Below, in pieces: positions 26,403 through 43,008 of a stretch of DNA of 64,000 bases (position 1 is the first letter of the stretch; each line of letters opens with the position of its first letter). The notes below the pieces were generated by a model. The model ran no database searches, was not told the origin of the DNA, and saw only the letters and a list, made by a program, of their open reading frames with translations. A program made the translations under genes and the position numbers. Source of the stretch: Myxococcota bacterium (lineage in GTDB: Bacteria > Myxococcota_A > UBA9160 > UBA6930); contig OZ245015.1 in the NCBI GenBank assembly GCA_965223705.1, forward strand, positions 4,288,001 to 4,352,000. Reading direction: 5' to 3'.

Positions 26403-27335
26403 ATGCCGTATCGCATCCCCCTCGCGTTTCTTCTCACAATCGTCACCGCCTCGTGGGCGGGCGCGGCGGATCACGAGGTCAGCCTGACGCCCCGCGACTT
26501 CTTCCCGGGCGATTCGTACGCCCTGTTTCTGCGGACCGACTCGACCACGGAAGCACATCTGCGTTCGACACCGGTCCGGTCCCACTGGGACATGGTCGAA
26601 CTCCGCTATAGCGCCGCAGTGATCGTCACCGAAGTGGACGACGAAGGGATCCCCACTCGGGAGCGACACGAAGGCGCACAGCTGACCTACGTGCGGCCTT
26701 ACGAAACCGAAGCTCTGTTCGACGAGAAAGTGTCACTCGACATCCATCGCTTGTCGCGCGGGCGCGTCGAGATCTACCACGCCGGGGAACGCGTCGCCGG
26801 AAAGATCGAGCGAACGATCGAAAAAGTGCTCGCACAACAATTCGAGTACGGACTCGGCCCCGAATTATTCACCCCGTCGCAACCCGTCGCAGTGGGAGAT
26901 ACCTGGGCGCTCGACCCGTGGGTTGCGCGGCGCTTCCTGCGACAGCTGGGGGTGCGAGCGATTCGCGTTTCGAAAGACGCGACAGCGACCCTCGTACGCT
27001 CGCACCGCGAAGGTGCGGTCGGCGAGCTCGCGATCCGCTACAGCATCCCGATCCCGTGGTTCGCGCCGGAAAGAATGCCCGCGTACTCGCTTCCCGCGGA
27101 CTCCAACGGACTCCTCGAAGGAGAGATCGTACTGCCGCCTCATCCCGCGCTGGGACACATCGGCCACTCGTCCATGTTGACCCTCAGCGCCCACGGGAGC
27201 CTGCGCGTAACCGCACCCGGTGGCGGCAAAGCCTGGCTGGTACAGAGCGCCATCGAGGCGGATCAGCGGACCCGCATGGTGAAGAAGCGTCTCGGCAGCG
27301 CTCGGATCAAGGTGTCCGCGATCGCTGCGCCCTGA
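26403..27335 (+). CDS. Hypothetical exported protein
   Basis: Signal peptide (…ASWAGA); fills the gap between the regulator and exbD; AAGGA SD. Confidence 0.7.
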   Translation: MPYRIPLAFLLTIVTASWAGAADHEVSLTPRDFFPGDSYALFLRTDSTTEAHLRSTPVRSHWDMVELRYSAAVIVTEVDDEGIPTRERHEGAQLTYVRPYETEALFDEKVSLDIHRLSRGRVEIYHAGERVAGKIERTIEKVLAQQFEYGLGPELFTPSQPVAVGDTWALDPWVARRFLRQLGVRAIRVSKDATATLVRSHREGAVGELAIRYSIPIPWFAPERMPAYSLPADSNGLLEGEIVLPPHPALGHIGHSSMLTLSAHGSLRVTAPGGGKAWLVQSAIEADQRTRMVKKRLGSARIKVSAIAAP

Positions 27336-27342
27336 CGGGTCG

Positions 27343-27741
27343 TTAGTGGGTGGTGCTGAACGAGAGCGCCACCGCACCGCCTCGTTTCGCAGCGTCCCAG
27401 ACCTGAACGAACGTGCCGTGGCTCGACTTCTCGTGCGCGCGGATGGAGATCGGGGTTTCGGGCTCTTTGAGCGCGCCCTTTACGACCTCGCTCACTTCGG
27501 CGAGTGAGATCTCGCGGCGATCGATCAGGATCTTGTTCTCCGACGTGATCTCGAGCGCCAGGTTGTCGCTCTCCTCTTGGTCGACGGGCTCGGCGGCGTC
27601 GGGCTTGCTCACCTGCACGCCCTGCTCTTCGATAAAGACGGTCGTCACGATGAAGAAGATCAGCAAGATGAAGATGCAGTCGATCATCGGCGAGAGGTTG
27701 ATCTCGGTCGCTTCTTCCTCGCTGAGAATCCGCTTCGCCAT
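27343..27741 (-). CDS. exbD: Biopolymer transport protein ExbD/TolR
   Basis: [24 protein letters not shown]. Confidence 0.92.
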   Translation of the reverse strand: MAKRILSEEEATEINLSPMIDCIFILLIFFIVTTVFIEEQGVQVSKPDAAEPVDQEESDNLALEITSENKILIDRREISLAEVSEVVKGALKEPETPISIRAHEKSSHGTFVQVWDAAKRGGAVALSFSTTH

Positions 27742-27743
27742 CG

Positions 27744-28325
27744 CTAGCGAAAGTTTCCGCTCGAAAGCGTCAGGCTCTCGAGTCGCGCGAGCTGCGCTTC
27801 GAGGAGCTGTCGCTTTCGCTGAATCAACATCACGATGAAGAGCCCGGGCAACGCGATGGTGAGGCCCGTCTGGGTCGTGACCAGCGCTTCCGAGATCCCG
27901 GAGGCGACGACGCCGGCGGTCTCGCCGCCGCCGCTCGTCGAGATGCCGAAGAAGGTCTGCAGCATCCCGAGCACCGTTCCGAGCAACCCGAGGAGCGGCG
28001 CGGCCGCCACCAGTGTTTTGACGAACTGAGAGCGTCGATCGATCAGCGACAAGATGGCGAGGCGTACTTCGTCAAAGCGCGTCCGGACGTCGTCCTCGGT
28101 GGACGCGCCGGCCTGCGTATAGGCGATGATGCGACCGACCGGTCCCTCCGCCCGCTCGGGCGAACGCACCCATTCCCACCAGTGGAGCTCGGTTTCGTCA
28201 CCGAAGCTCGCGCGGCCGACGTAGAGCATCAACGCGAACGCCTGGGCGTAGAGAAGCACGGCGAGGGCGAAGAGCGGGATCATCACCCAGCCGCCCGAGA
28301 GCCAGATGTCGAGGATGCGGTCCAC
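27744..28325 (-). CDS. exbB: MotA/TolQ/ExbB proton channel protein (short)
   Basis: GGWVMIPL, AAPLLGLLGTVLGM, GISEALVTTQTGL. Confidence 0.92.
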   Translation of the reverse strand: MDRILDIWLSGGWVMIPLFALAVLLYAQAFALMLYVGRASFGDETELHWWEWVRSPERAEGPVGRIIAYTQAGASTEDDVRTRFDEVRLAILSLIDRRSQFVKTLVAAAPLLGLLGTVLGMLQTFFGISTSGGGETAGVVASGISEALVTTQTGLTIALPGLFIVMLIQRKRQLLEAQLARLESLTLSSGNFR

Positions 28326-29767
28326 TAACGCTCGTCGTCCTCGAGATTGCGTGCACCCTGCAGAGCGGGGTGACCGATCTGCAGGCGTTCGCGAATCGAT
28401 TCGAGCCCGTTCACGAAAGCGACGGAAAGCTGTTCGAGGAGCCCGATCTTCCGTTTCGCCATGCGCGACAGCGCGCCGTGAAGAATCAATGTGGGGATCG
28501 CCACGATGAGACCGAGCGCCGTCGTGACCAGCGCCTCGGAGATTCCCGAAGACAGGCTCTTCGCGTCGCCGGTGCCAAACACCGTGATGAGCTGGAACGT
28601 CTTGATCATGCCGACCACGGTGCCGAGCAGCCCGAGAAGCGGTGCGGCAGCGGCCGTGATCGCCAAGAACGGCAGGAAGCGCTCGAGGGAGGGCCTTACG
28701 CGGAGAATCTTCTCGAACAGGAGCTCTTCGAGAACGCCGCGTTTTTCCGTCGCGTGGTCGACGCCGGTGGTCAGCATGTCGCCCGCGACCCCACCCAGCT
28801 GACGGGCCTCGGCGGAAGCCGCCGTGTGATTGCCGTTCGCCAGGGCTTCGAGCACTTCGTCGACGCGCTCGGGATCCGCCACGCGGAAGGACAAGATTTC
28901 AAACACTTTGAACGCGGTGAGAAGAAGCGCCGCTACGCCGAGCGCGATGATGACGTAGCCCACGGCGCCGCCATCGCGCACGTAGTCGAGCACGCCCTTT
29001 CGCGCCTTCTCGATCTTGAGCGCCTTTCCCAGTGTCGCGTCGAAGGGCAACGTGCCGCGCCCTTCTTGTGCCAGCGCGACGATTCCAGATCGGAGGTGCG
29101 CGGGGAGGCTAACCACCACCGGATCCGCTGCGTTGAGCTGGTTCTCGACGAGCCCGACGACCGCGCCGTCTTCACTCGCGAAAAACACCGTGGGTCCGAG
29201 TGAAATGAACTTACCGGCGGTGAGCACGCCTTCCGGCGACAACGCCTCGCCGGCGTAGACCTGCCCGCCCAGCTGGTCGCTCAGCCGATTCACCGCGGCG
29301 CGGACGACCGCCACCTGCGCGGCGCGTTTCCCTTCCGCGTCGAGGTTGACGTTCTTCTCCGCGAGCTTCGCCGCTTCCGTCTTCTTTTCGTAGAGGGGCA
29401 ACTCGCTGATATCGAGGCGGCTCTCGAAATCGCGAACGAACTCGTTCAAGCGGCTGTTGATGAATTCTTCTTGCTCGCGCAGGGACTCGACCTGCTTTCG
29501 CAGCGACGTCAGATCGACGCCGCGGCTGTCGCGGACCTTGTAGAGCTCCGTCCGCTTTTGACGAAGTGTAAGTACCTCTTTCTCGAGGTTCGAAACCGCG
29601 CGGGAGAGCGGGACCCGCTCCTTCGCGATGCGATCCCGCGTCGCCGAGAGCTCCGACAGCGCTTTCTTGAGCCGCGCGTCGATTTCTCCGCTCGCTTTCT
29701 CGAACGATTGCGCGTCGGCGGAGGCCGAAAAGATCAGGGTACTCGCTAGGAGCAAGATGCGAACCAT
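28325..29767 (-). CDS. Long MotA/TolQ/ExbB protein with periplasmic coiled coil (TtpC-like)
   Basis: Signal peptide, heptad-rich N-terminus, C-terminal APLLGLLGTVVGMI…GISEALVTTALGL. Confidence 0.9.
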   Translation of the reverse strand: MVRILLLASTLIFSASADAQSFEKASGEIDARLKKALSELSATRDRIAKERVPLSRAVSNLEKEVLTLRQKRTELYKVRDSRGVDLTSLRKQVESLREQEEFINSRLNEFVRDFESRLDISELPLYEKKTEAAKLAEKNVNLDAEGKRAAQVAVVRAAVNRLSDQLGGQVYAGEALSPEGVLTAGKFISLGPTVFFASEDGAVVGLVENQLNAADPVVVSLPAHLRSGIVALAQEGRGTLPFDATLGKALKIEKARKGVLDYVRDGGAVGYVIIALGVAALLLTAFKVFEILSFRVADPERVDEVLEALANGNHTAASAEARQLGGVAGDMLTTGVDHATEKRGVLEELLFEKILRVRPSLERFLPFLAITAAAAPLLGLLGTVVGMIKTFQLITVFGTGDAKSLSSGISEALVTTALGLIVAIPTLILHGALSRMAKRKIGLLEQLSVAFVNGLESIRERLQIGHPALQGARNLEDDER

Positions 29768-29770
29768 CGG

Positions 29771-30526
29771 TCAGCGCGCCTCCACGGGCAGCGCGACGAA
29801 CTCGATGTTGTCGACGTTCCCTTCATAGATATCGAGGAGCAAGCTCGCCTGACGCGCGAGCTCGGGCTCGTTCGAGAACTCCCATCCGTCGGGCCCCGAA
29901 GGTCGCCCGATCCCTGCAGTTTGCCCTTGGGCGTCGACGTACATCGCCTGGCCGAGGCCCCAGTAGAGCGTCCGCACCTGCACCTTCTGCCCGCCGGAAA
30001 TCGCGCGCGTCTCGCCGACGAAAGAAGCCGTACCGTCGAACTTCTCGACCTGGGCGAGCACGCCGAGAACATTCATCAGCCGTTGGCCCAGCTGGCTCTT
30101 CCCCTTCGAGGGATCCTCTGGAATTTGGACCAGCAGGAGCTTGAGCTTTTCTTGCAGCGGCTGGGGAAGCTGAGGCGCGAGCGAGAGCACTTCTTCTTCC
30201 AGGCCGCGAATCTGCTCCTCGAGGACGGCGCTCGCGCGTTGGTACTCGGCGCGTTGAAGCAGCAACTCTCGCCGCTCTTCGTCCGCCGCGCCTGTCGACG
30301 CTTCGAGTTCTTCGACTTCCTCGGCGAGCGCCTTCTTCTCCTGCTTGAGGAGATCCCGCTCAGAGCGGAGGTACTGTTGATCGATCTCCCAGCCGGACTT
30401 CTCCTCGGAGATGATCTGGCGCGTCTCGACCCACTTCTCGGTCTTGCTGCGGAATGCGTCCACGGAGTCCGCGGCCTGAGCGCTACCCGCAAGAGCGAGC
30501 ACGCCGAGCGCGAGATAACGAAGCAT
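29771..30526 (-). CDS. DUF3450-type periplasmic coiled-coil protein (TtpB-like)
   Basis: Signal peptide, coiled coil, TLYWGLGQAMYV; lies directly upstream of the long ExbB. Confidence 0.8.
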   Translation of the reverse strand: MLRYLALGVLALAGSAQAADSVDAFRSKTEKWVETRQIISEEKSGWEIDQQYLRSERDLLKQEKKALAEEVEELEASTGAADEERRELLLQRAEYQRASAVLEEQIRGLEEEVLSLAPQLPQPLQEKLKLLLVQIPEDPSKGKSQLGQRLMNVLGVLAQVEKFDGTASFVGETRAISGGQKVQVRTLYWGLGQAMYVDAQGQTAGIGRPSGPDGWEFSNEPELARQASLLLDIYEGNVDNIEFVALPVEAR

Positions 30527-30583
30527 GGTGAGAGGCCTCCCTGAGGCCCCCAAGATATGGGGGACGTGTGACGGGAAATCGTA

Positions 30584-30637
30584 GGATGGAAAACGTTTCC
30601 ATCCGGGTTGACCCCGATTTCGTCGCGATTTCGTTAC
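30584..30637. promoter_or_regulatory. Perfect palindrome GGATGGAAA-acg-TTTCCATCC plus 11-bp tandem repeat GATTTCGTCGC/GATTTCGTTAC
   Basis: Seen directly at 30584-30604 and 30616-30637, upstream of the DUF3450-exbB-exbB-exbD unit. Confidence 0.55.
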
Positions 30638-30662
30638 TGAAATCTCTTGCACACGGGTCCCG

Positions 30663-31472
30663 CTAGTTCGCCGCGACCGCCTGGACCTTGAGGTTCTTCA
30701 TGGCTTCGACGAGTCGATCTGCGGTCCCTTCGCCCCAGACTTCTTCGAAATACGAGCGCCCTTCTGAGGAAGTCAGAAGCACTCGCGGATACTCCTCTGC
30801 GGTCACCAACGTCGTCGAGTACGGCTCAGAGAGGCGCTCCATCATGAATGGGATGAGCCACCCTTGCTTCTGCAGGACACGCATCACCTCGATGTCCGGG
30901 GCATCGCCTTGGGGGAAGAAGACGGGCATGACAGCCTCCGGGATCGCCCGCTCGCGGATCGCGCGCGCCATGGCCTCGAAGGCTTCCGACTCGGGATCGG
31001 CGAAGATGTTCAAGAATCCGGCGGCGGCTTCCGCCTCGATCGGGTTTAGCGGGTTGGGCAACACACCTGACGATTCGAAAAGCCGCGGGACAACCGATGT
31101 CGTGAAATTTGCGCGCCGCTTCCGAATTTCGCCGCGGCGAATGCCGTTCGCCGCTTCGACAATGTTCGTCGACGTTATGGGAACGCGAAAGATTCCGTAG
31201 CTCGGCAGGTCAATCCGCGCGTGGCCTTCGGGCTCGACTCGAATGAGGATTCCCTTGGCGCCCTTACGCAGCGTCAGCGCAGACCCGGGCGGACTCCAGT
31301 CGGCGGCCATTTCGACGCGGTATGGCCAAAAGGCTTCTCGGTCGAGCAGATTGCCGACCGTGACTTCATCAGGTGGCGTCGTCGCAGCAACCTTCTCCGA
31401 ATGGGTCTCTGTGCATGCAACGAGCATCAGGGCCGAGAAGGTAAACGCGACGGGAAGCGTGAGAGATCTCAT
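30663..31472 (-). CDS. Lipoprotein; C-terminal half resembles a thioredoxin-like fold lacking CxxC
   Basis: Lipobox LVAC; FLNIFADPESEAF…VMPVFF…WLIPF…YPRVLLTSSEG pattern. Confidence 0.7.
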   Translation of the reverse strand: MRSLTLPVAFTFSALMLVACTETHSEKVAATTPPDEVTVGNLLDREAFWPYRVEMAADWSPPGSALTLRKGAKGILIRVEPEGHARIDLPSYGIFRVPITSTNIVEAANGIRRGEIRKRRANFTTSVVPRLFESSGVLPNPLNPIEAEAAAGFLNIFADPESEAFEAMARAIRERAIPEAVMPVFFPQGDAPDIEVMRVLQKQGWLIPFMMERLSEPYSTTLVTAEEYPRVLLTSSEGRSYFEEVWGEGTADRLVEAMKNLKVQAVAAN

Positions 31473-31511
31473 AGAAGAACTCGTTCCATTCAGTGGTTGA
31501 TTGATTCAAGT

Positions 31512-31547
31512 GAAGCGCCGCCGCCCCGAGAAGGGCGACGGCGCTTC
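31512..31547 (-). terminator. Strong stem-loop downstream of the PEP-CTERM gene
   Basis: 15-bp arms GAAGCGCCGCCGCCC/GGGCGACGGCGCTTC (one G-U pair on the minus strand); weak U tract. Confidence 0.6.
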
Positions 31548-31573
31548 GAATCAGGCAAGGCCCGCTGACCGCC

Positions 31574-32371
31574 TTAGCGGCGCACGCGGCCCGCGCGCTG
31601 GAGGCCGAGGAGACCCGCCAGCAGCATGAGAGCCGTCGACGGCTCCGGAATCGGCGCCGTCGTCGCGCTGATACCGAGGTTGTCGATCGCGGTGTTGCCT
31701 TGGTCGAAGGTCAAGCGAACGAACGCCATCGTCCCACCGTCGAGGAGCCCCGGCAGATTGACATTGTAGAGCGCCGCCGCGTCGGTGAGGTTCAACGTGG
31801 TGACCGCGCTGTAGGCCGCACCATCCGCCGAAGCCTCGACTTGGATAGTTCCCGCGTCCGCGCCGAGAATCATCACGCCCGCCAGGTCGAGCATATACTG
31901 AGTGCCGAGCAAGCCGACTGTGGTGAGGTCCGACTTGAAGACGATGCTCGTCGCCGCGGTGGCTTCGAGGCTCACGTCCGAGTACGGAAAACCGCGAGCG
32001 GGGTCCTCGGCGAAGAGCTGGGGAAGGTTGTCAAACGGACTGTCGCCCGCGGGCGTCCCGTTCTGCGGCAGTGTGTCGCCCAAAGCCCCGAATTGGTCGA
32101 CGGTCGAAAGAACCGAAGCACTCGCAGAGGCACCGTTTTGACCGTTGATGAAAGCGGTACCGAACGCTCGGGACTCCGCTCCCACGCCCTGTGTAGGGTC
32201 GAAATCCGAGTAGAGGGCATCGAGTGCTTCGGCAGGAGCACCGGAGGCATCGATGAAGTTCACACCTGCTGCGACGTATTCTGAGAAGTCCCAGCCGGCG
32301 ATGAAGGCGGCGTTTGCGCTACTGGAAGCCAGTAGGAGCGAAGCCGCGATTGCCATGGTCTTTTTGATCAT
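31574..32371 (-). CDS. PEP-CTERM sorting domain protein
   Basis: Signal peptide ending ANA; IAGWDFS start; C-terminal IPEPSTALMLLAGLLGL-QRAGRVRR; alternative start 32386. Confidence 0.9.
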   Translation of the reverse strand: MIKKTMAIAASLLLASSSANAAFIAGWDFSEYVAAGVNFIDASGAPAEALDALYSDFDPTQGVGAESRAFGTAFINGQNGASASASVLSTVDQFGALGDTLPQNGTPAGDSPFDNLPQLFAEDPARGFPYSDVSLEATAATSIVFKSDLTTVGLLGTQYMLDLAGVMILGADAGTIQVEASADGAAYSAVTTLNLTDAAALYNVNLPGLLDGGTMAFVRLTFDQGNTAIDNLGISATTAPIPEPSTALMLLAGLLGLQRAGRVRR

Positions 32372-32386
32372 TAGAGCTTCCTTCAT

Positions 32387-32458
32387 TGCGCCTCACCAGA
32401 GGCGCACGTCATAAGTGCAGCGAGGTGCCGGGCCTCGCCGGAGCGGAGCCCGGCACCT
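32387..32458. other. Two intergenic hairpins (TGCGCCTC/GAGGCGCA; AGGTGCCGGGC/GCCCGGCACCT)
   Basis: Perfect 8-bp and 11-bp inverted repeats between the beta-helix gene and the PEP-CTERM gene. Confidence 0.6.
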
Positions 32459-32477
32459 GGAGAGCAGCTGCGTCCGC

Positions 32478-34163
32478 CTAGAGCAAGCCGGCGAGATCGA
32501 GCACGGTCCAACCGTCCGTCCAGAGCGGCTGACCGGCAATGAACCCGCCGCGGGTCGAGGACGTTCCCAGCGGAATCGTTCCGCCGATTGCACCCAACCC
32601 ACCCGGTCGAGGATCAATCGGGGCCGACTTGAGACCGGCGCTCAGCTTGTTTGCGGAGTCGCCCGTCGGGTCGAAGGACGTGTCGGCATTGCCGAAGGTC
32701 GCGCCGATCGTGTTTAAGCGGTTCACGCCGAGAGCCGAGGTCCGCGTGTCTGCGTCGCCGCAAGCGAGGAGCGCCAGCTCCGTTGCGTTCTGACCACCCG
32801 AACCACCTTGGAACGTCGAGGACAGCACTTCGGTCGTGCAGGCTTCCGGTGTCCCCGTGCCGTCGATTTGTTCGGCGGTGGAGAAGCCGGTGCATCCATC
32901 AGACGTGTTGTCGTCGACGTCGATGCCTTGACCGATCGGGTTGTTCACGATCGCGTTCACGAGCATGCCGCCGGCGCCGTTGCGGAATTGCACACCGCGG
33001 TTGTTGCCCACGCCTGCGACGCCCGTGGGCGTGAAGTCAGGCGAAGTGACGAGACCGGACCCGAAAGTGGTCCAGTTTGCGAACCGGAAGTTCGACTTCG
33101 GTCGGCAATCGGCCGTGATACCCTTGTCGGCATCGTTGAAGTCGTCGCCGTCGAGCTCGCCGGCCTTGTCGCCGGAGTCGGAGCCGAAGGTTCCGATGTT
33201 ATCGGTCTCGCCAAAGAAGGGCATAATGGCGAAGAGATCTTCATTCACGCCGGTGTAGCCCTGATCGGTGTCGAAGGAATCATCGCCGGCAAATGTCACC
33301 ATCAGATTGTTTCCGTTGACGGTTCCGCCGAACCATTCCATGCCGTCGTCGAAGTTCGCAAAGACCTCGATGAACTCGAAAACGGTCGCGTCGCCGACGC
33401 CGGCGAGAGTCACGCCATTGATCTCGTTCGCTGTACCGATCTGGTCGCCACCGTGTTTGACCTGGATGAATCGCATCGTGCCGCTGTAATCGTGGACCAG
33501 CGGATTCGCGCTGTTGCCGTAGGAAGCCTGGAGCGAGTCGACATCGCCCGGGAGCTCGATCCCCTCAACGGTGCACTCGCCGAGGAGGCTGCCTGACAAG
33601 CCCGCGCAATCGGAGCCGTTGCCGACGTTCACCGGTGCTTCGCCGAGGATCACGAGGCCACCCCAGAGCTGAACCGCCGCGGTGCCATCGGCGGCAAGCG
33701 GAGCGGACGGAACGGTCGTGGGCGTGTCGTCCCAGTACTGCGACTCGAGAGTCGCCCCGGTCGCCTGGTTGAGGAAGGCACCCGTACGGTCCGGCACGTT
33801 GTCCGAGTTGAGATCGAGAGCAGCCGTCGTGAAGATGATCGGGGACGTCGGGAGCCCTTGGGCTTCGAGCGCACCTTGGCGCGTGATAATCAGAGAGCCA
33901 GGAGCTCCGGCCGAGCCCGCGGCGGAACGCCCCTGTCCGCGAACGACGCAGCCAGGGAGAATTGTGAGCACGACCGGCTCGCCACCCTTCGTTCCGTCAC
34001 CGACGGCCACCGGGCCGTCGAGCAGAATCGGGCAGGGATTCGGCGCGACGCCCCAAGTCTCGGACGACGCGATCGTGCCCGACTTCACTGTGCTTTGAGC
34101 ACCTGCCGAACCGGCGACACCGGCGACGGCAAGGGCAATCAAGGCAGTCAACAATCTGCGCAT
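32478..34163 (-). CDS. Exported beta-helix-like protein of a family found beside TonB-dependent receptors
   Basis: Signal peptide; LTILPG, PIIFT, WGGLVILGEAP, EINGVTLAGVG, DDGMEWFGGTVN, GDDSFDTDQGY, WTDGWT; GAGGA SD. Confidence 0.85.
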   Translation of the reverse strand: MRRLLTALIALAVAGVAGSAGAQSTVKSGTIASSETWGVAPNPCPILLDGPVAVGDGTKGGEPVVLTILPGCVVRGQGRSAAGSAGAPGSLIITRQGALEAQGLPTSPIIFTTAALDLNSDNVPDRTGAFLNQATGATLESQYWDDTPTTVPSAPLAADGTAAVQLWGGLVILGEAPVNVGNGSDCAGLSGSLLGECTVEGIELPGDVDSLQASYGNSANPLVHDYSGTMRFIQVKHGGDQIGTANEINGVTLAGVGDATVFEFIEVFANFDDGMEWFGGTVNGNNLMVTFAGDDSFDTDQGYTGVNEDLFAIMPFFGETDNIGTFGSDSGDKAGELDGDDFNDADKGITADCRPKSNFRFANWTTFGSGLVTSPDFTPTGVAGVGNNRGVQFRNGAGGMLVNAIVNNPIGQGIDVDDNTSDGCTGFSTAEQIDGTGTPEACTTEVLSSTFQGGSGGQNATELALLACGDADTRTSALGVNRLNTIGATFGNADTSFDPTGDSANKLSAGLKSAPIDPRPGGLGAIGGTIPLGTSSTRGGFIAGQPLWTDGWTVLDLAGLL

Positions 34164-34264
34164 GGTAATTGTGGTTCCTCTGGATGAGTTTGTTTCAACG
34201 CCGAGCCCCGCTCCCCGTCCTCGAGGTTCTGGCCCACCGTCGGCGCCTAATGTGTCAGTGCGGG

Positions 34265-34314
34265 GTGACACACGCGCCGCGCTCGTGTGATGTTTCGTTT
34301 GCCCCTCGGTGACA
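34265..34314 (-). promoter_or_regulatory. Three TGTCAC/CATCAC half-sites at exact 22-bp spacing (Pho-box-like)
   Basis: Plus-strand GTGAC 34265, GTGAT 34287, GTGAC 34309. Confidence 0.55.
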
Positions 34315-34352
34315 AGACATTCTTCCCCCTGGGACGCTCATCTCGCGCCTTC

Positions 34353-37300
34353 TCAGAACGTTCGCCGATAGGAAAGGGAGACCGAATAGTCCCGCCCGGA
34401 GCGGAACCGCCGCTCGTAAATGTCGCTGCTTGTCTGCTCGGGGTCGTAGAGGACACCCCGTTGGCTGTCGAGGAGGTTCTTCGCACTGAACTTCAGGACC
34501 AGCGGTTCGAACGTTTCCTTGCCCGGGCGAAGAAACCCGAAGCTCTGGCTGAACACCAAGTCGAGCTGAGAAAAGCCATCGGTGAACTGATCCAGGATCA
34601 GCGAGTTGACCTGTCGGTTCGGGGCGATCTGAGCCACGCCTGCGGCGTTGAGGACATCACTGATCGAGAAGAGCGCTAGGGTGGCCTTCGTTCCCCAAGC
34701 CGGATGGTCGAAGCTCAAGTCGACGTTCGCGATCCACTCCGGCTGTCCGAAAAGGCGCCGCTTCTCCTCGAGACCGCCGAAACGAGCGAGGCCGTCCGCT
34801 TCCGTCGTGCCAAAGAACCCCTCTGAGCGCGCGAGGGTCGCGAAACCGCGTTCCACTTCGGCGTCGATGTACGTGAAATTCCCGCCGATCGAGAAGTAGC
34901 TCGGGAACTCGGACTTGATCGGCTGGTAACCAAAGATCTTCCCGGCCAGGAAGCCCAGGTTCTTGCGCGCCTCGAACTCGAAACCGAGGAGATCGGCATC
35001 TGTCTGGTTGTTGAACCACGTGCGATAAAACGCGAACGAAGTCGAGTCATTGATCGTAGGATCGCGGAGCACGATCTTCTCGATCGGATCCTCAATCGTT
35101 TTATGAAATACGCTGAACGCGACCAGATCGCCTTGGTCGCCCCAGGTGTACTCCAAGCGCGCGTCGAAACTCTCGACTCTCGAGACGTCGAGCTGCGGGT
35201 TCCCGACCTCGAGACCGCTGCTGTCGACGGGAATCGTGACGTAGTAGCCGAGCTCGCGAAAAGACGGACGCGCGACCGTCTTTGAATAGGCGAGTCGTAG
35301 ATTGACACCTTCGAAGGGGCGATAGCCGACACCAATCGTGGGAAGGAAGAACCGCTCGTCGAGCTCCCCGTCGATCAGACTGTTGGGATCATCGACATCC
35401 ACGAATCCCGTGGCTGGATCGATTTGGACGTCGAGCCCGAGAATCTCGTCATTGAACACTGTGCCTGGGACCGCCGTGCCCTCGGTTCGCGTCACCGAAT
35501 TGTCGAGTCGGTCGAAAAACAAATAGCGAGAGGGAAAGACTTCGGGCGCTCCGAGAATCACTTTCGGATCGCCGTTTCGATCGAACGCCCGAGCGTCATT
35601 CGCCGAGGTCAAGCGCAGCGATTCGACGCGAAACCCGCCGAAGACATCGAACACATCCCAGAAGGTGAGCTTCGTATCGAAGTTGAAGGACCAGACCCGC
35701 CTTTCGGACTCGTTGCTCGACAATTGGAGGTTCACCAGTCGGTCCGTGTCGGGGTCCACCGCCAAGCTCGGGATCAGATTGGTCCCCACTTCCTCGAACG
35801 AATCGCCGAGCGCGATCCCCTGCGAGAAGTTCGCCAAGCAAATATCTCGCTCGAATCGACAGCGCTCTTGATCGAACAGAACGCCATCGCCGAGGAAACT
35901 CGCCCCGACATCGCGATCGGAGTTTTCGTACCAGCCGCCGGCGCGGATCGTCCAATCGACGAATCCGAACAATGACCGCTCGTAGCTGATGTCGAGGCGT
36001 GCGAAGTTCTGATTCTCTTCAATTTCGGTGTCGCTGAGCAAAATGTCGTCATTAATCGCGAAGACGCCGTCGCGTTCCGTTATCGGGTAGGTCTCCGGAA
36101 TGAAGGCAAGGTCCGGAGACGTGTTGAAGATCCGGTTCCTCAGTCCGAATTCTTCCTGGTCTGTTCGCGCCGTGTTGGCCACCCAGTTGATCTCGAGCCC
36201 TTCGAAGCGGTCCCAGCGGTGAGACCCATTGATCTGAAAGAGAGTCAGCGAACGCTCGCGATCGACACCCCGACCTTCGTTCACGTTCGACAGCCACTGA
36301 TGCCCTCGGAGAGGCGACGATGTGCGTCCACCCTCGTCGGAGTTGATATTGAACGCGATCCACGACCCCGGTGTCGCGAAGTTGTTGAAGCTGTCGGCAG
36401 AGACCGCTTCTCCCTGCAGTGTGTCGTCGACGAACACGTCGTAGTCGAACCCGGGAATGAAGCCGTTTTCTTTGTGCTGGACGATTTCCTCTTCCTTTTT
36501 CGTGTCGAAGAACGTGAAATCGATGGTGTGGTTCCCCTCGGTGTCGAGGTCGAAACCCAAGCCGCTAAACGCGGTGCGTTGCAGGACGCGCTCGCTCTGG
36601 GTGAGCTCGAACAGGCCTTCCGAGAGGTTGAGCTCGCCGAAGGCGAGGTCTCCGGACTGCTCTTCTCGCAAACCGGCGACTTCAAAACCGAACGGCGGTG
36701 TGATCAAGAGGTTCCGGCGACGCGGTTCCCGCGTTTCCTGAAATCCCTCCGACGTGGAGTAGTCGATCTCGTTGCTCAAGATCGCCTTGAAGCGGACGTT
36801 GCGACCGAAGAGTTCGTTGTTTCCTCCGGCGGAGACCTTGAAATCTGTCTCGAACGGGTTTGACCGGTCGCCACCCGTCGATGATTGGTCGTTGTACCGG
36901 AGGAACGTGTCCTGGGCTCGGTCCTCGAGCCCAGCGCCGGCGCTGAACTCGATGAAGAAGTTGTCTTCGGTGTACTGGTCGGTGCGGATGTCGATCGTAC
37001 CGCCCGCGGAGTTTCCGGGCGCGTCTGCGCCGAAGGTCTTCGCCACGACCAAGTTCGAGACGACTTCCGCGGGAAACAGATCGAGCTGAACCGATTGGCT
37101 CTCCGGGTCCGGGCTCGGTACCGGCGCGCCGTTAAAGAGCGTGCTGCTGTACCGATCTTCGAGGCCGCGAATAATGGCGAACTGCCCCTCGACGATGTTG
37201 ACGCCGGCCACGCGCTTGAGCGCATCGGCCACGTCGCTGGCCGCGAACCGCGAGAGGTCCTCGGCGCTCATGATGTTCAGCAGTTCATCGGACTCGAGCC

Positions 37301-37847
37301 GCAGCTCGAGCGATGTCATGATCTCGCTCACCGTAGACGCTTCGACGACGAACGCTTCGAGGTCGAGCACCTCGCGGCCTTCTTCGGTGGGGAGCGGCGG
37401 CATCGGAAAATCGGCGCGGTTCAGTTGCCCGGCGACGACCTGAAAGTCGGTCATGGTCGATGCTCGGTAGCCAGACTTCACGAAGCTCAGGCTGTACGAG
37501 CCTTCGGGGATCGAAGGAAACGTGAACGCGCCGTCCGGGTCGGTGAGCTGAACTTCCTGGCGGGGTTCGGATCCATCGCCGGGGTCGGGCCACACGACAA
37601 TGACCGAAACACCTGATACGGGCACGCCTGCTTCGGAATCGAACACCTGACCTGCCACACTTCCGTGGCCCGCCGCCGCTTCCGTCGCGGGTGCATCTTT
37701 GTCGACCGCGCTGGCGCTACCGATATTGCCGAGAACGTCTTCGAGGTCTCCCTGTGCCGACACGGGGAGCGCCATCATCAGGCAGAGCGCTGTGGCGGCG
37801 ATGATTGCAAGAGCGCAATGCGCCAGGTGGGGAGCGATTCGCTTCAT
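34353..37847 (-). CDS. Large TonB-dependent receptor with N-terminal carboxypeptidase-regulatory-like extension
   Basis: Signal peptide; GSVAGQVFD…GSYSLSFVKSGY extension; plug DVADALKRVAGV…IRGLEDRY…LDLFP; ARPSFREL, GNPQL, KNLLD; C-terminal Phe. Confidence 0.95.
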   Translation of the reverse strand: MKRIAPHLAHCALAIIAATALCLMMALPVSAQGDLEDVLGNIGSASAVDKDAPATEAAAGHGSVAGQVFDSEAGVPVSGVSVIVVWPDPGDGSEPRQEVQLTDPDGAFTFPSIPEGSYSLSFVKSGYRASTMTDFQVVAGQLNRADFPMPPLPTEEGREVLDLEAFVVEASTVSEIMTSLELRLESDELLNIMSAEDLSRFAASDVADALKRVAGVNIVEGQFAIIRGLEDRYSSTLFNGAPVPSPDPESQSVQLDLFPAEVVSNLVVAKTFGADAPGNSAGGTIDIRTDQYTEDNFFIEFSAGAGLEDRAQDTFLRYNDQSSTGGDRSNPFETDFKVSAGGNNELFGRNVRFKAILSNEIDYSTSEGFQETREPRRRNLLITPPFGFEVAGLREEQSGDLAFGELNLSEGLFELTQSERVLQRTAFSGLGFDLDTEGNHTIDFTFFDTKKEEEIVQHKENGFIPGFDYDVFVDDTLQGEAVSADSFNNFATPGSWIAFNINSDEGGRTSSPLRGHQWLSNVNEGRGVDRERSLTLFQINGSHRWDRFEGLEINWVANTARTDQEEFGLRNRIFNTSPDLAFIPETYPITERDGVFAINDDILLSDTEIEENQNFARLDISYERSLFGFVDWTIRAGGWYENSDRDVGASFLGDGVLFDQERCRFERDICLANFSQGIALGDSFEEVGTNLIPSLAVDPDTDRLVNLQLSSNESERRVWSFNFDTKLTFWDVFDVFGGFRVESLRLTSANDARAFDRNGDPKVILGAPEVFPSRYLFFDRLDNSVTRTEGTAVPGTVFNDEILGLDVQIDPATGFVDVDDPNSLIDGELDERFFLPTIGVGYRPFEGVNLRLAYSKTVARPSFRELGYYVTIPVDSSGLEVGNPQLDVSRVESFDARLEYTWGDQGDLVAFSVFHKTIEDPIEKIVLRDPTINDSTSFAFYRTWFNNQTDADLLGFEFEARKNLGFLAGKIFGYQPIKSEFPSYFSIGGNFTYIDAEVERGFATLARSEGFFGTTEADGLARFGGLEEKRRLFGQPEWIANVDLSFDHPAWGTKATLALFSISDVLNAAGVAQIAPNRQVNSLILDQFTDGFSQLDLVFSQSFGFLRPGKETFEPLVLKFSAKNLLDSQRGVLYDPEQTSSDIYERRFRSGRDYSVSLSYRRTF

Positions 37848-37901
37848 CGATTTTTGCTCGGTCGGCAACGCTTTCGGATGCGCCGGTACTCTACTGATGG
37901 T

Positions 37902-37977
37902 CCGATGAATCGGAGCCTCACTCGCGTGATGAAACCGGGGTGATTCTGTGACGCGACGGAGGCGCGCCGATGAATCG
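37902..37977 (-). promoter_or_regulatory. Three half-sites at 22-bp spacing plus a duplicated CCGATGAATCG
   Basis: Plus-strand GTGAT 37926, GTGAC 37948, ATGAA 37970; CCGATGAATCG at 37902 and 37967. Confidence 0.5.
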
Positions 37978-37985
37978 CGTTCGCA

Positions 37986-39341
37986 CTAGCGGGGGCGTAC
38001 GGCTCCTTCGACGCGGGCGAGGAATCGTTCGACGCGCGGCTCGCGCTTGATCGCGAGCGCATCGCGCAGGAGCTCGGCCGCCTTCGCGTAGTCGCGACCG
38101 GTAACGGCGAACTGAGCGTGCTCGAGCAGCGCGCGATATTCGAAGTCGTCGAGCTTTCGGGCGCGCTCCACCAGGAGAATCGCACGCTCTTCCTGACCGC
38201 GTCCGTGGTAGTAGGACGCGAGCTCGAGCAGTGCCTCTCCGCGGGTCCCGTCGCGATCGACGATGGATTCCAGCAGCTTCGCCGCTTCTTTCTCGCGACC
38301 TTCGGCGCGCGCGACCTTCGCTTTCAGGGTCAGCACCTTGAGCTCGTCCTCTTGCGAAAGCTCCTTGGCGTAGCGCGCGTCGACGGAGTTGAGGATTTCT
38401 TTTGCCGAGTCGAACGAGCGCGTCCGAATCAAGAGCTCAGCCGCGCGGTACGCCGTCGTAAACTGGCCGCCGCTCTTGTCGGAACGAATCACGTCGAGGT
38501 ACGCGTTCTTCGCTAAGTCGTACATCCCCGCGTTCATGTAGATATCGCCGAGCAGCACGAGACTGCTGGTCTCGGTTTTTCCCATCATGCGAACGGCTTC
38601 TAAGTTGGTCGCGGCATCCATCGGTTGCTCGAGCCCGATGTACGCGTTGGCCTGGAGCATCCAGGCACTGACGTCGCTGGGATCGTCTTCGATCAAGCTT
38701 TGGAACAGGGCTACGGCCTCGCGGTGCTGGTTCGTCGCGAGAAGTGCGCGCGCCAGGCCGAGCTGCCAATCTCGCGTGTCGGGCTCCTGCAAGATCGCGT
38801 TGCTGTACGCCTCTTTCGCCGCCAGGTTCTTCTCGAGGTTGATGTAGCAGTAGCCGAGCAGGCCGTAGTTCCGGCCGTCGCGGTCGCCGAGCTCGACCGC
38901 GCGGCCGAGGTGCGCAGCACCGCCTTTGAAATCGCCCTTCTGGACGCGCAGGAGTCCCAGGTTCTTGTGGGCGCGCCGGAAGTCCGGAAACTTGTCGATC
39001 GCGCTGCTGTAGTGCTTGGCGGCGGAATCGAGCTGACCGTTCTGAAAACTCAGGTTCGCGAGGACGAAGTCGAGCGCCGCACTACTGTCGCCGGTGATCT
39101 GTTGCGCGAGGACGCTTTCCGCAGCTTTGGGGTTGGCCTTCATCAGCCCGATGACTTCCCGCAGCAACTCGAGCTCGGTGTCTTTGACCTGAGGCTCGGC
39201 GCCGGAGAGAAAGCCGTAGCTTCCGAGAAAGCGCTTCTTCCACTCGGGATCGTCCAAGAATGAGGAGATCTCCGGAGAAGTTGCCGCGGTCGCCGCGCTG
39301 GCGAGTAGAACGAAACAGGCTGCGAGGATTGTTGTGCGCAT
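37986..39341 (-). CDS. Periplasmic tetratricopeptide repeat protein (TtpD-like)
   Basis: Signal peptide; TPR helices (AHKNLGLL, YGLLGYCY, AWMLQANAY, LLGDIYM). Confidence 0.9.
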   Translation of the reverse strand: MRTTILAACFVLLASAATAATSPEISSFLDDPEWKKRFLGSYGFLSGAEPQVKDTELELLREVIGLMKANPKAAESVLAQQITGDSSAALDFVLANLSFQNGQLDSAAKHYSSAIDKFPDFRRAHKNLGLLRVQKGDFKGGAAHLGRAVELGDRDGRNYGLLGYCYINLEKNLAAKEAYSNAILQEPDTRDWQLGLARALLATNQHREAVALFQSLIEDDPSDVSAWMLQANAYIGLEQPMDAATNLEAVRMMGKTETSSLVLLGDIYMNAGMYDLAKNAYLDVIRSDKSGGQFTTAYRAAELLIRTRSFDSAKEILNSVDARYAKELSQEDELKVLTLKAKVARAEGREKEAAKLLESIVDRDGTRGEALLELASYYHGRGQEERAILLVERARKLDDFEYRALLEHAQFAVTGRDYAKAAELLRDALAIKREPRVERFLARVEGAVRPR

Positions 39342-39404
39342 CACCGGCGAGGCTACTCGATCGGAATGCGCCGAAGTGTTCCGGTCGAGCCGTTCGGCCG
39401 TCTC

Positions 39405-39431
39405 TTCAACACTTCGTCATCGATTCTTCAA
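39405..39431 (+). promoter_or_regulatory. TTCAA-n6-GTCAT-n6-TTCAA 11-bp phased repeat overlapping the inverted repeat CGAAGTGTT/AACACTTCG
   Basis: Half-sites at 39405, 39416 and 39427; IR arms 39372-39380 and 39408-39416. Confidence 0.5.
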
Positions 39432-39432
39432 A

Positions 39433-40365
39433 CTAGGGCGATCCGCTGTAAAAGGCCTCGAGCACGACGCGACCGGCGCTTCCCAAGCTCAGTGGCGAGC
39501 ACTTGTCGAGTGTGTCGTCCTGGGTGTGCCACGGCGGATAGTCGAGATCGATCAACACAGCCGCGGGGAATCCGATCTGGAGGAACGGCGTGTGATCGTC
39601 GATGATCGCCTGACCCAAGCGAGGGACAAAGGCCCCTTCGTTTTGGCGACGGGCGGCGTCAAAGAGCTTTTTCGTGAGCGCGGGAAAGCGCTGCGCGCCG
39701 GTGCGCTCCTGGAAGATCTCGAGCTCCGCGTCGCCGACCATGTCGACGATCACCACGGCTTCGGGACGCGCATTCGGACGAAGTCGTTTCCAGTGCTTCG
39801 CCATGTAGCGGGAGCCGACGAGGTAGTCTTCGAGCTCACCCGCACGACCGAAGTCTTCTCCGTCGAAGAAGGCCACCTCGAGTCCCGGTTCCGCGCCCGC
39901 TTCGGCGACGACACGAGCGATCTCGAGCAACACCGCGACGCCGGATCCGCCGTCGTTTGCCCCGACGATCGGCCTCGCGCGCCCCATCGGATCGTCGTCG
40001 AGATCGCCCCACGGCCGCGTGTCGTAATGCGCACCGAGCAGGATCCATGAACCGTCGCGGCCTCCGATGAGCCCGGTGATGTTCGTAAAGTCGCGCGGAG
40101 CGCTCTCGTGCCGGGCTTGGTACTTGAGCGGAATGTCTTCGACCGTAGCGCCCAGCGCTTCGAGGTGTTTCCGGATATAGCGCTGAGCTCGCTCATGCCC
40201 CGGCGTCCCCGGGGCGCGCGGCCCCATCGCGACGAGATTCTGGAGGTGAGTCCAAGCGCGCTCCTCCGAGAAGCGCGCGGCGAGATCGGCGGAAACGGGA
40301 TCGGCTCCGGGTTTCGAACCGCAGGCCAAGACGAAGACAACGAGGAAGCCGTGGATCCACCGCAC
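39433..40365 (-). CDS. M28-fold lipoprotein, glutaminyl cyclase-type
   Basis: Lipobox VLAC; GAHYDTRP, GANDGGSG, FDGED, VDMVG, IDDHTPF, WHT. Confidence 0.82.
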   Translation of the reverse strand: MRWIHGFLVVFVLACGSKPGADPVSADLAARFSEERAWTHLQNLVAMGPRAPGTPGHERAQRYIRKHLEALGATVEDIPLKYQARHESAPRDFTNITGLIGGRDGSWILLGAHYDTRPWGDLDDDPMGRARPIVGANDGGSGVAVLLEIARVVAEAGAEPGLEVAFFDGEDFGRAGELEDYLVGSRYMAKHWKRLRPNARPEAVVIVDMVGDAELEIFQERTGAQRFPALTKKLFDAARRQNEGAFVPRLGQAIIDDHTPFLQIGFPAAVLIDLDYPPWHTQDDTLDKCSPLSLGSAGRVVLEAFYSGSP

Positions 40366-40374
40366 CCGCAGAGG

Positions 40375-41934
40375 TTAGTTCACGCGAATCGGAATCGGCA
40401 GACGCGCCCGCGCCGAAACGGGCTGCCCGTCCCGCGTCGGGGGTGTGAACTTCCACGTTCGGACCTGGGTGAGGACAAACGCTTCGAACTCCGGCAGATC
40501 CGACGAATCGATATCGGCGGTCAGGACCTCGCCTTCTGCGCTGAGCTCGACGGACAACACGATCTCGCCTTGGATCTTCTTGCGCCGCAGCTGCCAAGGT
40601 AACTCGAGCCCCGCGCTACCGACCGGCCGCGGCGGTCGGTCGAGATCGGTCGCGTTGTGAATGCGCGCGAGCTCTTGCGCGCGCTTGAGCGCGGCAGCCC
40701 GCTTCGCGTCGCGGTGCGTTCGCTCGTGTCGAGCCAGCGCGGCCCGCGCATCACCGCGTTGATACAGCCCACGGAACCCTTCGTGCGAGCACGCACCGTC
40801 CGCGCAAAAGATCTCCCACAGACTCGCGGCGGCGAGTTCCGATGCGCTCGCGCCGCCGACTTGTGGATCGTTGACGACGAGCGTCGCGATCGCGATGCGC
40901 GGCTCATCCGCCGGAGCCACACCGATAAACCACTGATAGAGACCTTCCGGCGCGTGCCCGCTCAAGGTCCCGGTCTTACCGGCGACGGAAATCTCGCCGA
41001 GAAAGGGCGAGCCCGAAGCGTTGTGGAAAGCGCGGCGCGCGGTTCCACTGCGGGTGACCGAAATCAAATGCTCGCGCAGTTCGGCTGTGAGCTCGGGCGT
41101 CCAAACCGCTTCCGCCGGCCGCGCTTCGGGGATTTCGTAGTCGTTTCCATAGCGATCCCGAATGCGTGCGATCCAGTGGGGCGTCACCAGACCACCGTTG
41201 GCGAGAAGCGCTGCGAGACGGGCCGCGCTGAGCGGCGTGATGAACGAGCCGGCGAGTCCCGAACCGAGCCGGCCGAGATCGAAGGGACCTTCGCCGCTGT
41301 CGATCTCACCCGTCGCGTGCCCCGGCGCTGGCGCTTCGAGCAGTCCGGCGCGCTCGATCTCGTCGACGAGTAGCGTCTCGCCGACGTCTCGCGCGGCGAA
41401 GCGTGCGAAGCACTGATTGTTCGAGTTTGCGAGAGCGGTGCGGAACGTTTCGACGACTCCGCCTTCCCGAGGAGGCGTAAAGTCGCCACCGTGCAACGCG
41501 TAGCGGTTTCCCGTGTATCGGCACGGGCCCCGTGCCGCATCGGGAGCGTGTTTTAGAACCGCTGCAGCCGTGACAACTTTCATCAGCGACGCGGCCGGGT
41601 AAGCGCGCGTCGGCGGGAAGGCCTCAGGATCGGTCGAAAGGTAGGCGAACACTGCGCCGCTCGACGCATCCATCACGAGGATGTGACCGCGGTCGACCTC
41701 GCGCTCTGTGAGTAGGGCCCGCAGATTGGACTCGAGCATCGGATCGGTCGTGTATTCGACTTCGTAGTCGCCGACGCGCTCAAGCGTGCGAAGTCCTGCT
41801 GCGGGAACCGTCGCTTGCGACGCCCGCGCTCCCGGGGGCAAGCGTTCGAAGAGTTCCTGCGCCGGCTCCGCACCCGCGGGACACCCGAAAACGAGCGCCC
41901 CGAGCAGCGCGAGTGTTCGGACGCGCCCGCTCAA
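40375..41934 (-). CDS. Penicillin-binding transpeptidase domain fused to a TonB C-terminal domain
   Basis: SLMK (SxxK), SNN (SxN), KTGT, WFIGVAP; C-terminal WKFTPPTRDGQPV TonB_C. Confidence 0.88.
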   Translation of the reverse strand: MSGRVRTLALLGALVFGCPAGAEPAQELFERLPPGARASQATVPAAGLRTLERVGDYEVEYTTDPMLESNLRALLTEREVDRGHILVMDASSGAVFAYLSTDPEAFPPTRAYPAASLMKVVTAAAVLKHAPDAARGPCRYTGNRYALHGGDFTPPREGGVVETFRTALANSNNQCFARFAARDVGETLLVDEIERAGLLEAPAPGHATGEIDSGEGPFDLGRLGSGLAGSFITPLSAARLAALLANGGLVTPHWIARIRDRYGNDYEIPEARPAEAVWTPELTAELREHLISVTRSGTARRAFHNASGSPFLGEISVAGKTGTLSGHAPEGLYQWFIGVAPADEPRIAIATLVVNDPQVGGASASELAAASLWEIFCADGACSHEGFRGLYQRGDARAALARHERTHRDAKRAAALKRAQELARIHNATDLDRPPRPVGSAGLELPWQLRRKKIQGEIVLSVELSAEGEVLTADIDSSDLPEFEAFVLTQVRTWKFTPPTRDGQPVSARARLPIPIRVN

Positions 41935-42593
41935 TTGATTTGAATCGGAATCGGCAATCGCGCTTGTGCGCGCACCGGTCGACCCTGTTGCGTGGGCGGA
42001 GTGAACTTCCAGTCTCTGACTTCGGCGAGGATGAAGTTGTTGAAGTCGGGAAGCGTGGAAGAATCGAGCTGCACGTCCATGACGTCGCCGCCGGTGTCGA
42101 GCTTGACGAGCAGGACGACGCGCCCCTTGACTTTCTTTTTCAACAACCGACGCGGAAAGTTGAACCCCGAGACACCGATCGGTCGCGGCGTTTGATCGAG
42201 GCTTGAGAAATCGACGAAGTCCTCGGTTCCGAGATCGCGCGACGAAGTCCCGATCGTCGGCATCGCGAAGTCTCCCGCGAGCGATCCTCCCGTGCCGGGG
42301 TTGAGGGCGATATCGAGCTGGTCGAGCGAGAGCTGCGGCGGATCCTCTTCGAGCTCCGGCGGCGGCGGCTCTTCCTCAGGCGGGGGCAGTTCTTCTTCCT
42401 CGATTTCCTCGATGTCGGGCGGCGTGTACGCCATGACCATCTCATCGATCTCTCGGGTCGGCGGCTTGACCTTCCCCATCATCTGTACGAGGGCCATCAC
42501 CAAGAAGAGAACCACCGCGAAGAGCACCCCTGCCGCGAGGCCTGCGCGAGCCTCACCGGGGCGTTCGGGCAATCGAAACGTTCGCTTCGGCAT
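41931..42593 (-). CDS. tonB: Energy transducer TonB
   Basis: N-terminal TM, E/P-rich linker, C-terminal GRVVLLV…WKFTPPTQQGRPV. Confidence 0.92.
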   Translation of the reverse strand: MPKRTFRLPERPGEARAGLAAGVLFAVVLFLVMALVQMMGKVKPPTREIDEMVMAYTPPDIEEIEEEELPPPEEEPPPPELEEDPPQLSLDQLDIALNPGTGGSLAGDFAMPTIGTSSRDLGTEDFVDFSSLDQTPRPIGVSGFNFPRRLLKKKVKGRVVLLVKLDTGGDVMDVQLDSSTLPDFNNFILAEVRDWKFTPPTQQGRPVRAQARLPIPIQIN

Positions 42594-42603
42594 TGGGGGG
42601 CCC

Positions 42604-43008
42604 TCAGTCGTTTCGCGTTGAGAGGCTGATCTTCTTGGCCCCGGCGTTTTTGACTTCGCTCCAAACGTCGGAAAAAACGCCGTGGTCCGCGCGCGCGTCC
42701 GCCTGGATGATGACGGGCAACTCGTCGCGGGTGAGAAGCTGTTTCACTCGCGCGCCGACGCCCGAGACGCCGAGCTCGCGTCCGCCGTAAACCACTTTGT
42801 TGTCGGCGGAAACCGCGATGATGATGCTGTTCTTTTCGAGGTCTTCGTCCAAAACCGCGTCGGGTTTCGCGATCTCGACCCCCGGTTCTTCGACGAAGAC
42901 GGTCGTCACGATGAAGAAGATCAACAGGATGAAAATGCAGTCGATCATCGGAGACAGGTTGATCTCCGTTTCGGTATCCGGATCTTCGAGGACGCTTCTT
43001 CGGGCCAT
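42604..43008 (-). CDS. exbD: Biopolymer transport protein ExbD/TolR (second copy)
   Basis: [31 protein letters not shown]. Confidence 0.92.

Follow-up and report, generated by a model that had tools for sequence, protein, structure and literature searches.

The window analysed here, a 64,000-nucleotide stretch of a Myxococcota genome, encodes a protein in which a penicillin-binding protein (PBP) transpeptidase-fold domain is joined to a TonB C-terminal domain (TonB_C). We found that this fusion recurs across several families of its class, and that in two relatives the gap behind tonB encodes a different enzyme, an M15-fold zinc peptidase, carrying the same subtype of TonB_C. From these sequences we propose that the fusion may well be an accessory periplasmic wall peptidase, docked by its TonB_C at the site of TonB transport and likelier to cut the wall than to cross-link it.

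A transpeptidase-fold domain fused to TonB_C

The gene lies at 40375..41934 on the minus strand and its ORF translates into 519 residues, for which Pfam, a structural model and assembly contigs give a predicted signal peptide, a PBP transpeptidase-fold domain, a helical spacer and TonB_C. Both Pfam domains score above cut-off, PF00905 (Transpeptidase) at residues 84-370 (40825..41685, minus strand; E 1e-23) and PF03544 (TonB_C) at residues 446-514 (E 8.5e-10, 39.4 bits; TIGR01352 also above cut-off at 36.2 bits), which upholds the architecture that the first-pass annotation had read from the sequence. Structure and sequence matches place the transpeptidase domain with the class B, PbpA-like enzymes, the best sequence match being Mycobacterium tuberculosis PbpA (3UN7, E 1e-23) and the fold matching class B PBPs (Foldseek E 4e-18). 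All three catalytic motifs are intact, as had been claimed: S116LMK (41578..41589), whose serine is catalytic by homology, S171NN (41416..41424) and K320TG (40969..40977), all on the minus strand. Among the best 120 of 478 homologues, the S and K of SxxK are kept in 119, SxN in 120 and KTG in 119, and the motifs are intact in 18/18 genome copies of the fusion.

At E 0.01, Pfam found no pedestal (PF03717), PbpA dimerisation, glycosyltransferase or M56 domain in the protein, in agreement with the earlier view that pedestal and glycosyltransferase are missing. PF00905 and PF03544 are the only Pfam matches, and the S11 DacA, S13 DacB and AmpH families are absent; the enzyme may still work like a low-molecular-mass PBP.

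In the AlphaFold model (86-sequence alignment, mean pLDDT 92.4, pTM 0.83) the fold begins at about residue 50, and an Ala/Arg/Glu-rich helix at residues 388-427 (40654..40773, minus strand; inferred length about 6 nm if straight) separates the two domains, matching the helical linker noted before. Across the family this linker has 27-57 residues and is likewise Ala/Arg/Glu-rich. By Pfam and alignment the TonB_C domain comprises residues 431-519 (40378..40644, minus strand) and ends in the conserved last strand ARLPIPI-I. Our recount of its ungapped alignment to the adjacent TonB gave the same 47/89 identities over the C-terminal 89 residues as the first count, and BLAST of the region returned 47/93 identities (E 2e-32).

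Translation starts at a TTG codon, and this start and the stop of tonB overlap by 4 nt. A cleavable signal peptide is predicted at residues 1-22 (41869..41934, minus strand) from sequence, hydropathy and family N-termini, by a heuristic of hydropathy and inspection. Of the two export routes that the first-pass annotation had offered, signal peptidase I cleavage near AGA(20-22) is the likelier, by prediction. The lipobox route is rejected: the pattern occurs in 2/108 full-length homologues, and VFGC in the window does not fit it. AxA is present in 103/108 of these homologues, a loose pattern and hence a weak indication. By a heuristic score, the best 19-residue N-terminal hydropathy is 1.3 for the fusion vs 2.8 for TonB, and 13/108 full-length homologues exceed 2.0. 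Model, linker composition and hydropathy agree with the earlier statement that the fusion is without the N-terminal membrane helix and extended Pro-rich linker of TonB transducers, and a soluble periplasmic protein is predicted.

Misassembly was also considered. Single contigs span the whole ORF in 4/4 runs (2 samples, 1 study), bridging the junction with no indel, and these contigs together with the existence of a family rule out a chimera. Promoter and terminator scans stayed at chance level.

Distribution and origin of the family

A protein search gave 478 matches among 8000 scored candidates, and both Pfam domains are present in 119 of the best 120 of these 478 (query included). Source labels on relatives are Myxococcota. 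Within the class, a match spanning both domains was found in at least 18 of 225 genomes, distributed over 6 of 13 families and two orders, and two further fusions (G144, G137) are interrupted by contig ends. Some match exists in 195/225 genomes, mostly the unfused paralogue. When longer proteins carrying this TonB_C were sought, 120 candidates were scored and 2 PBP fusions came out, too small a yield to enumerate other partners; a search of representatives was dominated by tandem TonB_C repeats. In 18 genomes sampled from other classes of the phylum, no TonB closely matching this type was found.

The unfused paralogue in the window's genome (G000:C1:537455-538777, equal to L001:9455-10777) is 52% identical to the fusion; it is a pedestal-less transpeptidase of class B type with intact motifs and a hydrophobic N-terminus, and such a paralogue is present in most genomes of the class. 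The genome carries five other PF00905 genes, so the fusion is an extra enzyme.

An unrooted tree of the transpeptidase domain separates 18 fused copies from 23 unfused paralogues (23/24 loci tried), the branch between them having an SH-aLRT support of 99. Ranked by similarity to the window's fused TonB_C, its own genome's TonB comes 19th of 33. Between fused TonB_C and neighbouring TonB, dS is 0.94-1.6, synonymous sites thus being near saturation, and dN about 0.4. The support of 99, the rank and these dS values point to a fusion that arose once, long ago. The first-pass annotation had derived the C-terminus from a local duplication of tonB: descent from this TonB type stands, and a recent, strain-level duplication is ruled out by the tree, the identity ranks and dS. 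Its suggestion to compare dN and dS was followed, and of 15 pairs, 13 aligned ungapped and have dN below dS (dN 0.34-0.52, dS 0.68-1.58).

Furthermore, the fusion lies directly behind tonB with overlapping stop and start codons in three genomes (G000, G099, G072), which suggests that it did originate at the tonB locus. The tree of TonB_C itself (89 columns, G017 fusion left out) leaves 27/55 inner branches open. AU tests on this domain, with 53 rows from which orphan TonBs, fragments and one long branch were left out, failed to reject a pairing of the G000 fusion with its TonB (p 0.37) and likewise failed to reject a single clade of TonBs (p 0.87). Likeness is 0.48 among the fused TonB_C domains vs 0.63 among the TonBs.

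The fusion in a Ttp-type TonB cluster

The locus carries a full Ttp-type set in one cluster, namely ttpB (DUF3450), a long ExbB-like ttpC, exbB, exbD, tonB and a TPR-type ttpD, of which TtpC and TtpD were assigned here by domain and position and not by alignment to the Vibrio proteins. The following genes are all on the minus strand. Upstream of the fusion are a second copy of ExbD (42604..43008, Pfam) and TonB (41931..42593), a 220-aa protein with an N-terminal membrane helix and a short Pro/Glu linker by Pfam and hydropathy, which is the only stand-alone TonB above cut-off in the genome. Downstream, an M28 peptidase, likely a lipoprotein (39433..40365, Pfam), which is absent from the relatives' clusters examined, is followed by the TPR protein at the TtpD position (37986..39344; Pfam, neighbourhood comparison) and by a TonB-dependent receptor (34353..37868) whose N-terminal extension is carboxypeptidase-regulatory-like by Pfam and alignment. 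A candidate TonB box, LEAFVVEA, lies at about 37338-37361 by an inferred assignment, and the cluster receptors have this box-like segment in common after the N-terminal extension.

Further along come a beta-helix protein (32478..34271), PF28492-like by Atlas and conserved with the cluster by neighbourhood comparison, and a PEP-CTERM protein (31574..32386; Pfam and other family profiles). The remaining core genes encode the DUF3450 protein TtpB (29771..30652; Pfam, PMC6957404), the long ExbB-like protein at the TtpC position (28325..29767; domain and position) and, by domain, ExbB (27744..28325) and the first copy of ExbD (27343..27741).

Several other features of the locus were observed. The order over 27343-43008, exbD-tonB-fusion-M28-ttpD-receptor-beta-helix-PEP-CTERM-hypothetical-ttpB-ttpC-exbB-exbD, is a circular permutation of that in most relatives. 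The Atlas clusters closest to the beta-helix protein come mostly from Verrucomicrobiota, as far as their phylum is recorded, which is a lead on the source of the gene cluster. At the cluster end, many relatives keep an exported protein of about 270 aa (30663-31472 in the window, minus strand) that matches no family. A second exported protein, of about 310 aa (26403-27335, plus strand) and without any Pfam or NCBIfam match, is found again beside the cluster in several relatives. A likely lipoprotein with Ig-like and VWA-like domains (L043:11813-12901, L035:6207-7292, L037:5829-6941) stands next to ttpB in several relatives, often adjoining the fusion.

The link to the TonB system proposed from the window alone is borne out in other genomes: in 12/18 the fusion belongs to or adjoins a TtpB/C/D-type TonB cluster, at varying position and on varying strand, with one of the 12 (G094) having it beside satellite genes only. 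The slot between tonB and ttpD is used in 5 genomes. In the other 6/18 the fusion lies among unrelated genes, the cluster being located elsewhere in 3 of these genomes. TonB_C is most diverged in four of the 6 unlinked fusions, all from one genus. In this genus (L068, L071, L072, L074), where the fusion is outside the cluster, the catalytic motifs are intact, and in the three genomes that have a TonB of their own, TonB_C is 37-45% identical to it.

Of the 20 fusion genomes, 14 yielded a stand-alone TonB of this subtype, vs 25 of the 205 others, with at most 11 candidates scored per genome and kin not being independent. We inspected 20 of these 25 genomes, and 18 have the cluster and no fused enzyme in the stretch covered. 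Therefore the machine does not need the fusion, which is an accessory and not a core part of it. A class-wide search for PF11932 gave 176/225 genomes and mixes several Ttp systems, for which reason it does not enter these co-occurrence counts. Orphan second copies of this TonB subtype occur away from clusters in G058, G115, G209 and G208 (L044, L085, L102 and L104, respectively).

A zinc peptidase with the same TonB_C

In the other two of the 20 inspected genomes (G038 and G097, one genus), the gap between tonB and ttpD encodes a different enzyme attached to TonB_C of the same subtype. Directly behind tonB, a single gene (L043:6086-6925 in G038, L077:341-1093 in G097) codes in turn for a signal peptide, a zinc peptidase of M15 fold and TonB_C, and no PBP fusion was found in either genome. 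The family comprises 44 proteins (P0123-P0166), 43 further full-length homologues having been recovered among 79 matches; its genomic placement is known for 2 genomes, both of one genus.

The enzyme domain of P0123 adopts a Hedgehog/DD-peptidase fold, with the Zn DD-peptidase 1lbu as best structural match (Z 8.2, rmsd 3.5, 99 residues) and VanXY and phage endolysins as the next peptidase structures. The zinc ligands H/D/H (H-x6-D...H) are present in 44/44. Pfam labels are DUF5715 in 36/44, VanY in 4/44 and M15_3 in 4/44, all of them below cut-off for P0123, and the linker is disordered. Two unrelated wall-peptide folds with the same TonB_C in the same slot are the strongest argument for a functional pairing and for a hydrolytic job, and cutting is favoured over cross-linking because the solved M15 relatives are hydrolases.

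Discussion

We suggest, at about even chances, that the fusion serves TonB transport as a docked wall peptidase. The protein would be exported and released by signal peptidase I, and the last strand of its TonB_C would pair with the TonB box of a receptor, as in TonB. A helical spacer of 4-8 nm could then span the gap between the outer-membrane face and the wall and bring the active site to peptidoglycan, where D,D-endopeptidase or carboxypeptidase action would make or keep room for the trans-envelope parts of the TonB/Ttp machine. Consistent with such docking, 33 TonBs, 120 PBP fusions and 44 M15 fusions show similar conservation of the TonB_C core and its last strand, and the third strand of TonB_C binds the TonB box in FhuA-TonB (PMC11658791).

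The first-pass annotation had left open whether the enzyme cross-links or edits the wall. Of these, cross-linking now looks the less likely, and hydrolysis is favoured because the fusion is without a pedestal for SEDS pairing and an unrelated enzyme of hydrolase fold fills the slot in relatives. Several points count against a docked peptidase. Most genomes with this TonB lack the fusion, 6/18 fusions lie outside the cluster, and the M15 counterpart is placed in a single genus. The class B domains characterised so far are cross-linking, not cutting, enzymes. In addition, the genome has five TonB-dependent receptors and one TonB, and periplasmic TonB fragments inhibit TonB function; a soluble TonB_C would compete with the only TonB for the five receptors.

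That last difficulty would disappear if the fusion edits the wall for the same machine while its TonB_C tethers it to TtpD, TtpB, ExbD, a TonB dimer or peptidoglycan instead of a receptor box, since the receptors would stay unblocked. The position between tonB and ttpD fits such a tether, and TtpB2 and TtpD2 have been proposed as protein-interaction parts (PMC6957404). However, conservation of the box-binding strand equals that in TonB and nothing points to TtpD or TtpB as partners, and we regard this as a minority possibility.

It is rather improbable that the class B domain braces the wall under the receptor, either by cross-linking or by gripping stem peptides as an acyl-enzyme, and so provides a fixed point for the TonB motor. 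Such a role would suit the class B fold and the rigid helix of the model, and anchoring to peptidoglycan matters for the Ton motor, whose component ExbD binds the cell wall (PMC10771500). Nevertheless, the fusion has neither the pedestal, which pairs class B enzymes with a SEDS polymerase, nor a predicted membrane anchor for such a partner (PMC12516126), and the M15 alternative combines a hydrolase fold with a disordered linker.

Still less probably, TonB_C would merely occupy boxes as a competitor or regulator of TonB, or have no role at all while the enzyme acts like its unfused paralogue. Without a predicted membrane helix or a Pro-rich linker no energy coupling is expected, the fusion is patchy (at least 18/225) and unlinked in 6/18, and fused TonB_C domains resemble one another less than TonBs do; yet both halves have stayed intact across long divergence, and two unrelated wall-type peptidases gained the same domain. 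Least probable of all is a beta-lactam trap or slow beta-lactamase at the receptor exit, guarding against antibiotics that enter via TonB-dependent receptors: the soluble serine PBP fold with intact motifs and the acylation of solved relatives by beta-lactams would allow it, but a zinc peptidase sits in the same slot and a single weak beta-lactamase Pfam label (P0040) was found in the best 120 homologues.

Both domains and the host system are already known. With class B PBPs (M. tuberculosis PbpA, 3UN7 and 3LO7; Clostridioides difficile SpoVD/PBP3, 7RCZ and 7RD0) the fusion has the fold and the SxxK/SxN/KTG motifs in common; in contrast to them it is without pedestal, PbpA dimerisation domain or predicted membrane anchor, its cluster has no SEDS gene, and it adds TonB_C at the C-terminus. 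In having PF00905 without PF03717 it resembles the pedestal-less 'only-TPase' proteins of a 2025 InterPro survey (PMC12516126), a group into which the class-wide unfused paralogue also fits. The partners named in that survey are PASTA, M56, OB, MecA_N, PBPA_dimer and SEDS; its main text does not mention TonB, and its Table S8 may still include the architecture. In BlaR1/MecR1 and M56-TonB_C proteins, a membrane M56 protease is followed at the C-terminus by one or the other of these two domains (bioRxiv 10.64898/2026.04.08.717257), whereas the fusion has transpeptidase and TonB_C together and no M56.

The Vibrio TonB2/TonB3 systems (PMC6957404, PMC10734418) have the same gene set as the fusion locus (ttpB, ttpC, exbB, exbD, tonB, ttpD), with DUF3450 as TtpB and the TPR protein as TtpD; the locus adds a second exbD, the beta-helix protein and the PEP-CTERM protein, and the consulted text on the Vibrio systems mentions no wall enzyme. 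Myxococcus xanthus AgmT, which works with the Agl-Glt motor (PMC12288465), is a wall enzyme serving a trans-envelope machine and in this resembles the role proposed here, although AgmT is a lytic transglycosylase outside the complex and is not described there as fused to TonB_C. We found no paper on a transpeptidase-TonB_C fusion in the literature, the consulted text of PMC12204202 and PMC8597729 containing none, and no dedicated wall enzyme for TonB systems.

The way in which TonB and its partners traverse and exploit peptidoglycan is only partly understood, and two unrelated peptidases that carry the same TonB_C open a direct way into this question. The PBP and M15 fusion proteins are small and, by prediction, soluble enough to test. 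The fusion family also offers a convenient case for studying class B domains without a pedestal, on which the authors of the 2025 survey were aware of no functional study (PMC12516126).

More tentatively, TonB_C could be a transferable tag by which wall hydrolases are addressed to TonB-dependent receptors. In this class it would have been recruited twice, once by a serine PBP and once by a zinc peptidase, in the same slot behind tonB. Wall hydrolases serve trans-envelope machines in flagella and secretion systems. If TonB_C is such a tag, Ttp-type TonB machines would, like these, carry a dedicated wall-opening part, perhaps for large cargo such as the co-encoded beta-helix protein.
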